Shown: positions 36,542 to 37,760, numbered from the stretch's first letter. The stretch: DNA of 64,000 bases from a virus (IMGVR_UViG_3300023184_000033:99825-163824), one strand, 5' to 3'. Translations and numbers: made by a program. Notes: a model not told the origin generated them from the letters alone.

Positions 36542-36655
36542 ATTTACTCCTTGTGTTGTAGTGTGTGTTATACTGACTTTTATGTTTGTCAGTATAATTA
36601 TTTAGGCAGTTTAATTCCGTTACGAGGATAAACTACCAAAAACCATAATCGATTT

Positions 36656-36826
36656 TCAACTCGATTTTTTGGCTGATTTCTTAGCTTCTGCTTTCTTAGC
36701 TACAGGCTTAGCACTTTCTTTCTTAACTGTTGCTGCTGGTGCAGCCGGTTTTGCTGGTGCTGAAGATTGTGCGAAAGAAACAGTTGCGAATGATAACATT
36801 ACTAGTGCGATAATTGATTTCATATT
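36656..36826 (-). CDS. Small exported Ala/Lys/Pro-rich peptide (acid-shock-protein-like composition)
   Basis: Signal peptide MKSIIALVMLSFATVSFA; AAAGGA SD; APAKPAAP..KK tail. Confidence 0.7.
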   Translation of the reverse strand, partial: NMKSIIALVMLSFATVSFAQSSAPAKPAAPAATVKKESAKPVAKKAEAKKSAKKSS

Positions 36827-36898
36827 GATTCCTTTAAAAAATTTAAAACTGCAAGTTGATTCTGTTGCTAAGTTCAACTTGCAAAACTCCGATGAGGA

Positions 36899-36931
36899 TT
36901 ACGCCGCCATCAAGAAACGTGAGTCGTTTGC
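36899..36931 (-). other. tmRNA tag reading frame (A)ANDSRFLMAA
   Basis: gca aac gac tca cgt ttc ttg atg gcg gcg taa, after an A-rich resume context. Confidence 0.9.
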
Positions 36932-37017
36932 TTTTACTTTATTTTCTTCTTTTTACATCGTTGCTGATGTGCTGTCCACTCATTTACTTGTTGCCCTGTC
37001 GAAACTATGCAGGCCCA

Positions 37018-37176
37018 TCATAAAGATTTAATTTCTGTGATGATACTGTAGATGTTTGAGTATGTATTAGTTATTTCCTCTAGCTGTTGTTCTGATATAG
37101 AATCATTTACTTCAAAATGAACTAAGTCTTTAGCTAGATTCTCCTGTAATAATTTCAAACTATCTTGTTCATCCAT
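37018..37176 (-). CDS. 52-aa acidic ORF inside the tmRNA intervening segment (missing from ORF track)
   Basis: MDEQDSLKLLQENLAKDLVHFEVNDSISEQQLEEITNTYSNIYSIITEIKSL*; AAAGG SD 5 nt upstream. Confidence 0.6.
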   Translation of the reverse strand: MDEQDSLKLLQENLAKDLVHFEVNDSISEQQLEEITNTYSNIYSIITEIKSL

Positions 37177-37270
37177 ATAAACCTTTATGGTGGACCTGGG
37201 GGGATTCGCACCCCCGTCCAGAACACTTTTCTCTTTGCTTCATACAGCAATATCACTTAATCATGTTATA

Positions 37271-37299
37271 ATTATATATCATTTAATGGCCATTGGCAA
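37271..37299 (-). promoter_or_regulatory. Sigma70 promoter of the tmRNA (TTGCCA-17-TATAAT)
   Basis: Directly upstream of the acceptor piece. Confidence 0.85.
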
Positions 37300-37322
37300 G
37301 CACTAAAAGATTATATACCACT

Positions 37323-37760
37323 TTAATTACACCAAGATTGTTTGGCTTCACCATAGTATTCACGTGCATATCCTTGTTGGATTAACATGTAACGTAAGGA
37401 TTGGCCATTCAATAGTACATCACCTAAAACACGGCCGCCATATTTGTCCCAATCCATCAATACCACTTGGCGTGTTGTAGATTGTTCTACCATTTTCTTA
37501 GTAAATGCACTAGCGGCTTGGCCACGTGCATCTTCTTCAGGACACTTTGCCCGAAATCCTTTTTCTGGAGTATCAACACCAAATACACGAATCGATAATT
37601 CTTTCTTTAGTGGATCAGGTAACCATAGTGCCTGAAATGCAACTGTATCACCATCAATAACTCTGGTGATAACTGCGTTGTATGTTACACCAGCTTTTTG
37701 TTGTTGTGCAAATGCTGGTAATGTGCAAATCATGCACAAAGCAATTAATAATTTTTTCAT
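37323..37760 (-). CDS. Staphylococcal-nuclease (thermonuclease) family protein with signal peptide
   Basis: RVIDGDT, IRVFGVDTPE, DKYGGRVLG, GYAREY; start MKKLLIAL at 37760. Confidence 0.92.
   Translation of the reverse strand: MKKLLIALCMICTLPAFAQQQKAGVTYNAVITRVIDGDTVAFQALWLPDPLKKELSIRVFGVDTPEKGFRAKCPEEDARGQAASAFTKKMVEQSTTRQVVLMDWDKYGGRVLGDVLLNGQSLRYMLIQQGYAREYYGEAKQSWCN

Follow-up and report, generated by a model that had tools for sequence, protein, structure and literature searches.

Can the segment that is cut out of a two-piece transfer-messenger RNA (tmRNA) hold a genuine protein gene, and does such a gene belong to the tmRNA or merely lodge in it? This question is raised by a locus on the minus strand of IMGVR_UViG_3300023184_000033:99825-163824, a stretch of 64,000 nucleotides (nt) referred to below as the window, which forms the terminal 64 kb of a viral record in IMG/VR (163,824 bp, estimated completeness 98%). 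The source is an uncultured freshwater phage and the surroundings of the locus are phage-like, with a nuclease, a cell-wall hydrolase and long tail genes adjoining. An earlier note, made from the sequence alone, had described a phage-encoded circularly permuted tmRNA whose intervening segment (IVS), or spacer, of about 170 nt is almost completely occupied by an open reading frame (ORF) of 52 codons. Two readings had been offered: release of a small messenger upon tmRNA maturation or, alternatively, a neutral slot for cargo genes. The explanation favored here, which is considered probable, is that of a working phage two-piece tmRNA of betaproteobacterial-like type, dependent on the SmpB protein of the host, whose spacer serves as a co-transcribed cargo slot holding a genuine small gene. 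The coordinates of all features are collected in Table 1.

The identity of the tmRNA was established as follows. ARAGORN calls a permuted tmRNA (tmRNA*) at c[36808,37280] on the minus strand, with the tag ANDSRFLMAA*, and this is the sole RNA gene called in the 64-kb window. The Rfam model RF04321 (tmRNA_permuted) matches positions 36899-37249 of the same strand along the full model (1-213) with 99.1 bits, the gathering score being 47. Both programs agree with the location given in the earlier note, and the covariance-model check that it had proposed was passed. The permuted order is apparent, as the half carrying the T-arm and the ACCA end comes first and is followed by the spacer, then by the acceptor 5' strand and the tag frame. 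The acceptor stem displays 7 bp (GGGCCUG/CAGGUCC), followed by the discriminator A and CCA, and includes G1-C72, G2-C71 and G3.U70, the pair that confers alanine identity. The tag frame starts at a GCA resume codon and terminates with a hydrophobic residue, two alanines and a stop codon. The G3.U70 pair, the CCA end at 37188, the start of the coding piece at 37016, the tag and the TTGCCA-17-TATAAT promoter were all recovered as previously described, and the spacer was measured at 171 nt. Pairs 3 and 4 of the acceptor stem covary from GG/CC to CC/GG across the ORF-bearing relatives; the tmRNA is therefore considered to be still under selection. The possibility of a tmRNA pseudogene was also considered and was ruled out by this covarying stem and by the full-length model match.

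As to its lineage, the betaproteobacterial two-piece model RF01850 is the lineage-specific model that cmscan retained for the window tmRNA, with a full-model match of 53.2 bits (E 2.2e-15) that does not reach the gathering score of 84. The related loci L220, L204, L202 and L210 clear this threshold with 100-125 bits. The window tmRNA thus resembles the beta type without qualifying as a member of RF01850. A gene for SmpB was not found in the 98%-complete phage genome, and the window tmRNA would need the SmpB of its host. A peculiarity of the tag was also observed. It ends in L-M-A-A, with methionine at residue -3 (36899-36931, minus strand), while the relatives examined all end in A-L-A-A or I-A-A (for example FALAA, YALAA or KIAA). 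Residue -3 of the tag matters for recognition by ClpX in Escherichia coli.

The 52-codon ORF fits tightly between the two tmRNA pieces. An 11-nt leader containing the Shine-Dalgarno (SD) sequence separates its start codon from the CCA, and its TGA stop codon, which is the UGA of the conserved UGAU leader preceding G1, ends 1 nt ahead of G1. An ORF of at least 52 codons was obtained in about 0.5% of the shuffles of the window spacer. Ten homologues of 50-54 amino acids (aa), displaying 56-88% identity, were retrieved from the protein databases, and a scan of viral contigs yielded 38 loci encoding relatives of the family. In all, the homologues of 50-54 aa number more than 30. The alignment of twelve homologous sequences is free of frameshifts, its insertions and deletions consist of whole codons only, and no variation is seen in the blocks LQENLAKDLV, YS..Y and K. 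Among the spacer-resident copies, the pairwise Nei-Gojobori ratio of nonsynonymous to synonymous substitution rates (dN/dS) ranges from 0.03 to 0.28, with synonymous sites near saturation. Five copies encode an identical protein and differ by up to six synonymous sites, and codon position 3 is more variable than positions 1 and 2 along the body of the gene. A helix-loop-helix hairpin (helices 3-22 and 29-50) was modeled by AlphaFold2 from the family alignment with a predicted local distance difference test score of 94. A chance ORF was rejected on account of the shuffles and of the dN/dS of the homologues. The ORF and AAAGG motif reported in the earlier note can thus be regarded, on the strength of homologues, substitution ratios and in-frame indels, as a genuine protein gene under selection.

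The contrary view holds that the open frame and its conservation are due to the RNA structure of the spacer alone. The spacer is indeed strongly structured, and RNA-level constraint does act on the last codons of the ORF, as detailed below. This view is nevertheless effectively refuted by the dN/dS values with near-saturated synonymous sites, the restriction of indels to whole codons and the confident protein model, as well as by homologues located outside tmRNA genes that display low fold z-scores and by internal pairs of the folded spacer that are mostly unconserved. Nothing specific was retrieved for the 52-aa protein in Pfam, PHROGs, a PDB sequence profile search, the ESM Atlas or Foldseek (queried with the AlphaFold model), generic helical hairpins being the only matches. 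A distant-mode DNA search of the locus and a tblastn search of the peptide gave no match among 50,697 isolate-phage records.

Spacers of other phage tmRNAs were compared in order to place this gene in context. The sample was defined by one pattern combining T-arm and acceptor end and comprises at least 120 viral stretches, 106 of which were parsed as permuted, with 90 distinct spacers. Among the matches listed, to which all spacer counts given here refer, spacer length varies from 14 to 532 nt with a median of 74 nt, and an ORF running on the same strand as the tmRNA fills 17 of the 90 distinct spacers. The nine spacers of at least 160 nt all contain a large ORF, which takes up 73-93% of their length. 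The filling ORFs mostly begin 9-15 nt past the CCA, and most of them terminate 1 nt before G1. Their products are mutually unrelated and include a family of hydrophobic peptides of about 34-50 aa, membrane-like peptides of 24-26 aa, a CxxCxxCC protein of 86 aa (Pfam, 26.6 bits for a cut-off of 23), proteins of 50, 101 and 122 aa and, in one spacer, the products of two mini-ORFs. In two of these other cargo families the ratio of nonsynonymous to synonymous polymorphism (pN/pS) lies between 0.18 and 0.52. In addition, most of the 532-nt spacer of L176 is taken up by the gene of a 152-aa HNH homing endonuclease, which ends at the conserved UGA before G1; it is not counted among the 17, as its ORF starts 72 nt after the CCA.

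Some individual spacers deserve mention. A 215-nt spacer (L238:1731-1945) contains two membrane-like mini-ORFs of 36 and about 25 aa, and a 122-aa ORF fills a 382-nt spacer (L237:2113-2494), its only lead being a sub-threshold Pfam match of 16 bits to HTH_45, a weak hint of a winged helix. Both loci carry a gene of the LQENLAKDLV family upstream of the tmRNA and not inside the spacer. A filling ORF is absent from the longer phage spacers (105-144 nt) of L086, L090, L145, L146, L198, L084, L123 and L140.

The exchange of spacer content becomes apparent upon comparison of the spacers with their flanks. The acceptor pieces of the window and of L004 share 99% identity, yet the spacer of L004 is unrelated (60 nt, no ORF). 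The closest tmRNA relatives, L003 and L004, both display an unrelated 60-nt spacer at the IVS position. With L202 and L204, the acceptor piece shares 56-74% identity as opposed to 77-79% for the spacer. This discordance between spacer and flanking pieces indicates that cargo probably moves between phages by cassette exchange. The comparison of homologous spacers suggested in the earlier note has revealed both retention of the ORF, under the low dN/dS mentioned above, and cargo swapping. The reading of the spacer as a slot for cargo genes is borne out by the unrelated ORFs of other spacers, by near-identical tmRNA pieces enclosing unrelated spacers and by the presence of the family outside tmRNA genes.

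This last point could be examined in some depth, as the family was found in three settings: within tmRNA spacers, directly upstream of tmRNA genes and free-standing. The spacer-resident copies are housed in tmRNAs that have diverged in the T-arm and carry six other tags, and all of them end in ...KSL followed by TGATGGG. Upstream copies display either this spacer-type end (L206, L209/L210) or the other type of end (L220, L238). The free-standing copies possess a different C-terminus (...DKxKE), and for four of them Rfam gathering scores revealed no tmRNA closer than 1.5 kb. In the unrooted tree of the coding sequences, the free-standing and upstream type is split from the spacer type with a support of 100/99. 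Three copies that have left a spacer are placed separately among the spacer copies, and the direction of the original move is not set by this tree. In L205, an intact ORF lies between a decayed CCACCA remnant and a decayed remnant of the 5' coding piece, and an intact tmRNA with an ORF-less spacer of 118 nt follows. Since the ORF is intact and the flanking tmRNA remnants are decayed, the gene has outlived the tmRNA copy that housed it. The arrangement looks like the product of a partial duplication or of recombination. In this decayed copy (L205:1440-1700) the T-arm is lost, the CCACCA is kept and the remnant of the 5' coding piece reads TGATGAGCCTG. Because the family also occurs upstream of tmRNA genes or on its own, the 52-codon gene is, to judge from these contexts, cargo and not a part of the tmRNA. 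A further locus, L208, displays an ORF-bearing tmRNA inside a cluster of six tRNA genes (Rfam tRNA hits at 97-167 and 1119-1837).

The distribution of the family also bears on another explanation, namely that the 52-aa protein acts on trans-translation, for instance on host SmpB, on the tmRNA or on tag-dependent proteolysis, and is kept by the tmRNA gene for co-production. Most family members are located inside a spacer, directly upstream or within about 1 kb of a tmRNA gene, and the phage of the window is devoid of its own SmpB; both points speak in favor of such a partnership. The linkage can nevertheless be explained by local recombination in one region of the genome. The same slot carries genes with no relation to this family, among them those of membrane peptides and of a selfish HNH endonuclease, the gene is missing from L003 and L004 in spite of their closely related tmRNAs, and the four free-standing copies mentioned above have no tmRNA nearby. 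Moreover, profile and Foldseek searches detected no similarity of sequence or fold to any trans-translation factor. A functional partnership is accordingly deemed quite improbable.

The manner in which cargo genes fit the slot is best understood from the RNA structure. Together with the acceptor stem, the window spacer folds into a long irregular hairpin, or rod, of -49.5 kcal/mol (z = -5.65), a stability attained by none of 200 shuffles. Its two ends, CATAAAGGTTTA and TAAATCTTTATG, form 12 bp, one of them G.U, in the fold of minimum free energy. The earlier note had predicted precisely this helix, together with its covering of the SD and the stop codon. The helix was found as announced, but it is not special to spacers that contain an ORF: among the matches listed, 93% of the 72 spacers of at least 44 nt display an end helix (z below -2), whether or not they carry an ORF. 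The consensus is CCA-WAAR... paired with ...YUUWU-GAU-GGG. Within the family, the helix is kept in all ten IVS-resident homologues, the only changes being from A-U to G.U. Predicted pairs inside the rod are mostly not conserved, the terminal helix being the only conserved part, and RNAalifold reported no convincing covariation in the spacer rod beyond this helix and the acceptor stem. Spacer-resident copies display fold z-scores of -2.6 to -6.8, as compared to -0.5 to -1.6 for most non-spacer copies.

As the end helix is equally present in ORF-less spacers, it cannot have evolved to regulate the window ORF; the ORFs have been fitted to the helix instead. An SD-like GGA, GAG or AGG occurs within the first 14 nt of 15/17 ORF-bearing spacers versus 10/55 ORF-less spacers (Fisher p = 2.7e-7), the guanines of the SD pairing as G.U with the U-rich 3' strand. 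At the other end, the ten spacer-resident homologues hardly vary over the final 17 nt of the ORF, stop codon included, and are identical over the next 3 nt. Third-position identity amounts to 0.95 in the last four codons, against 0.47-0.80 elsewhere in the ORF. The last codons coincide with the U-rich helix strand, the codon before the UGA being UUA, UUU or UUC, and unrelated cargo proteins therefore end in L or F (S-L, S-F, F-F, L-L or F-L). The tail of the free-standing relatives of the 52-aa protein is quite different.

In the explanation favored here, the slot would be bounded on one side by a purine-rich 5' strand (WAAGGR) adjoining the CCA and on the other by a U-rich 3' strand followed by UGAU immediately before G1, both being common to all spacers of this group of phage tmRNAs. 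The two strands would pair into a helix extending the acceptor stem. Genes lodged in the slot would take the 5' strand as ribosome-binding site, and most of them would take the UGA of UGAU as stop codon. Recombination in the conserved tmRNA flanks would then permit the exchange of cargo between phages.

According to the same explanation, the 52-codon gene would lack a promoter of its own and would be transcribed from the tmRNA promoter as part of the precursor. A promoter scan of positions 36600-37500 revealed no second sigma-70-like site on either strand, and none within the gene. One may alternatively suppose that the gene is transcribed independently, from an unrecognized phage middle or late promoter located within the acceptor piece or ahead of it, and that tight gene packing alone accounts for its place in the spacer. 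T4-like phages do possess promoter classes outside the scope of the scan, and a second TATAAT-like box is present upstream, near 37310. On the other hand, 11 nt only are available between the CCA and the start codon, the 60 nt upstream consist of conserved tmRNA sequence, any transcript reaching the ORF from upstream would include tmRNA sequence, and the start offset is the same in unrelated cargo. Independent transcription is thus regarded as very improbable.

Co-transcription within the precursor leaves two main candidates for the translated RNA species. In the favored explanation, translation would take place mainly on the nascent precursor, at a time when neither the acceptor stem nor the 3' half of the rod has formed. 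Once the helix and the acceptor stem are folded, cleavage by RNase P at G1 and 3' trimming to the CCA would remove the spacer and put an end to translation. In the release reading of the earlier note, these same two processing events free the 171-nt spacer as a small messenger, and the peptide is produced mainly from this excised RNA, its expression being tied to the maturation of the tmRNA. The geometry is certainly suitable, with the ORF located exactly between both processing sites, an 11-nt leader provided with an SD and an end situated 1 nt before the RNase P site. The same geometry is found in most unrelated cargo ORFs, and the paired ends could shield the excised RNA from exonucleases. 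The excised spacer would nevertheless contain both strands of the helix, with the SD sequestered in a stable rod. A poor messenger is therefore to be expected, making translation on the nascent precursor the more likely event. In addition, the helix is equally present in ORF-less spacers, which means that it is not coding-specific, and the protein presumably functions when encoded at ordinary positions elsewhere, so that release would not be needed. For these reasons the release model is ranked below the nascent-precursor model and is held to be unlikely.

An extension of the nascent-precursor scheme, to which a low probability is likewise given, would attribute two fates to one transcript. 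A ribosome engaged on the ORF would block the closing of the helix and of the acceptor stem, and the transcript would act as a messenger. When translation stops, the stem would fold, and RNase P cleavage and 3' trimming would yield the two-piece tmRNA. The stop codon is situated 1 nt from the predicted RNase P site. If this were true, ribosomes present on cleaved spacers would end at the 3' end of a messenger and could become substrates of the tmRNA derived from the same transcript. Phages would then use translation to set the timing or the amount of rescue RNA supplied, which would give the slot a role beyond that of a parking place.

Several points weigh against the cargo-slot explanation and should be taken into account. 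We infer both the translation of the ORF and the RNA species from which it would proceed. The SD is embedded in the helix and the whole spacer is a stable rod, which is expected to hinder ribosome loading. The proportion of filled spacers is a rough frequency, originating from one T-arm pattern among the matches listed, and two of the 17 (L088 and L093) could be chance ORFs. The fold contrast opposes 7 copies to 10, with L232 (z = -4.9) and L239 (-2.35) as exceptions. Finally, the promoter scan was limited to sigma-70-type sites, and T4-type middle or late promoters may exist inside the acceptor piece.

Two-piece tmRNAs are a well-established form, for which Keiler et al. 2000 and Sharkady & Williams 2004 are said to be the founding papers. 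The window gene shares with bacterial permuted tmRNA genes (RF04321; RF01849 for alphaproteobacteria, RF01850 for betaproteobacteria and RF01851 for cyanobacteria) the order of acceptor piece, intervening sequence and coding piece. It also shares the G3.U70 pair, the ACCA end, the GCA resume codon, a tag of the form ANDxxxxxAA and a spacer expected to be removed by tRNA-processing enzymes. Phage two-piece tmRNAs are already known as well: the relevant passages of PMC9004378 count 53 of them among 133 unique phage tmRNA genes, 50 belonging to marine or aquatic phages. The same passages describe the OM43 phage Melnitz, with a glutamine riboswitch in the 3' domain and an ssrA gene placed with the alphaproteobacterial lineage. 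As reported there for Melnitz and for the pelagimyophages, which are aquatic T4-like myophages, the window displays, likewise in a large aquatic myophage, a permuted ssrA with an early-type promoter upstream and no phage smpB (PMC9004378). It differs from Melnitz in that its tmRNA is nearest to the betaproteobacterial model and its 171-nt spacer contains a selected gene; the riboswitch passages on Melnitz describe no gene in the spacer (PMC9004378).

Regarding the content of intervening sequences, the 2025 tmRNA database (PMC11915505) names two items only, a tRNA-Ala gene described as unique and a repetitive element, with no protein genes. Homing-endonuclease genes, of the LAGLIDADG type, are reported there only in group I introns of tmRNA (PMC11915505). 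Like the tmRNA genes that bear such introns, the window possesses a protein gene in a part expected to be absent from the mature RNA, and the spacer of L176 also holds a homing endonuclease. In contrast to group I introns, the window spacer involves no ribozyme and would rely on ordinary end-processing, the insertion is located between the CCA and G1 and not in the T-loop, and the cargo is not an endonuclease. An intron was also considered for the window and was rejected, as no ribozyme or intron family is found in it at Rfam gathering scores; nor does the window ORF, with no Pfam or PHROG match, qualify as a homing endonuclease or the window, with no Rfam intron family, as a mobile intron.

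Another type of comparison is provided by dual-function RNAs such as SgrS/SgrT and RNAIII/hld, where, as in the window, one transcript gives both a coding frame and a functional non-coding RNA. The window differs from these in that the coding and functional parts would be separated by processing, the gene being nested in a single RNA gene. Full-text literature searches, which reached few subscription papers, returned no description of protein genes in the spacers of permuted tmRNAs. What the window adds is the LQENLAKDLV family in three contexts, the decayed-host case of L205 and the synonymous-site evidence that a helix dictates the tail of a protein.

The IVS of a permuted tmRNA is usually treated as disposable non-coding RNA, and selected genes appear here and in roughly a fifth of the sampled related phage genes. 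Such genes seem to draw both their ribosome-binding site and their stop codon from a conserved RNA helix, so that the RNA structure dictates protein ends in spacer cargo. Annotation pipelines usually suppress genes nested in RNA genes, which are then missed or mis-annotated. The slot may be seen as a natural, splicing-free safe harbor for cargo, selfish genes included, in an RNA gene under selection. It could also provide a simple system where translation and stable-RNA maturation compete on one transcript. These features should make the locus of interest to RNA and phage biologists alike, as a system that appears directly testable.

Bacterial genomes were searched for comparison using RF04321 on 151 alphaproteobacterial genomes. 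The model match spans 181-343 nt in 146 of them, including the unpublished genome G044, on which none of the present conclusions depends. The longest alphaproteobacterial spacers read from the verbose output of ARAGORN (133, 120 and 105 nt) do not display the design of an SD and an ATG...UGA frame filling the spacer. In the longest spacer of the sample (133 nt, L360, G066:C37:17615-18157), an ATG frame noticed by eye appears to run on into the coding piece; this frame is probably due to chance, with no SD-in-helix design. The T-arm pattern applied to bacterial genomes returned mostly one-piece tmRNAs of many phyla, 4 of 120 stretches being permuted. Two of these four lie in Bacteroidota bins of metagenome-assembled genomes, Haliscomenobacter and Crocinitomicaceae (L315/L369, G003:C90, and L260/L370, G004:C493), and are permuted tmRNAs of the phage type whose acceptor stem is that of the window. 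One of these loci possesses an 85-nt spacer encoding a 23-aa membrane-like peptide. Both contigs are probably phage contigs or prophages within the bins, and a second, weaker tmRNA match is found elsewhere in G003.

Table 1. Coordinates of the tmRNA gene, its spacer and the gene it contains (window positions), with the homing-endonuclease gene found in another phage spacer.
Feature	Position	Strand	Basis
Sigma-70-like promoter TTGCCA-17-TATAAT of the tmRNA precursor	37271..37299	minus	11/12 matches
Acceptor piece of the two-piece tmRNA	37188..37249	minus	RF04321 alignment, ARAGORN, sequence
T-arm	37215-37199	minus	sequence
Acceptor 3' strand CAGGTCC	37198-37192	minus	sequence
Discriminator A	37191	minus	sequence
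CCA	37190-37188	minus	sequence
5' strand of the IVS-closing helix, CATAAAGGTTTA, including the CA of CCA and the SD	37178..37189	minus	fold, homologue alignment
IVS, 171 nt, expected to be excised on maturation	37017..37187	minus	sequence and RF04321 boundaries
SD-like AAAGG within the 5' strand of the terminal helix, spaced 5 nt from the ATG downstream	37182..37186	minus	sequence
52-codon ORF, predicted acidic two-helix hairpin protein of the LQENLAKDLV...YS..Y family	37018..37176	minus	ORF call, homologues, dN/dS, AlphaFold2
3' strand of the IVS-closing helix, TAAATCTTTATG, which also encodes the C-terminal K S L and covers most of the stop codon	37019..37030	minus	fold, homologue alignment
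Coding piece of the tmRNA	36844..37016	minus	ARAGORN, RF04321; 3' limit from full-length beta_tmRNA alignment
Acceptor 5' strand GGGCCTG	37016-37010	minus	sequence
Tag frame ANDSRFLMAA*	36931-36899	minus	ARAGORN
Terminal hairpin, then T-rich run to about 36844	36882-36851	minus	sequence
HNH homing endonuclease, 152 aa	L176:2268-2726	minus	phrog_655, E 2.6e-15

A small gene is located directly after the terminal hairpin and T-run of the tmRNA, at 36656-36823 on the minus strand, and is preceded by an AAAGGA SD. Its predicted product displays a signal-peptide-like N-terminus followed by a basic tail rich in Ala, Pro and Lys (MKSIIALVMLSFATVSFAQ...), and its start is overlapped by the 3' limit that ARAGORN assigns to the tmRNA.

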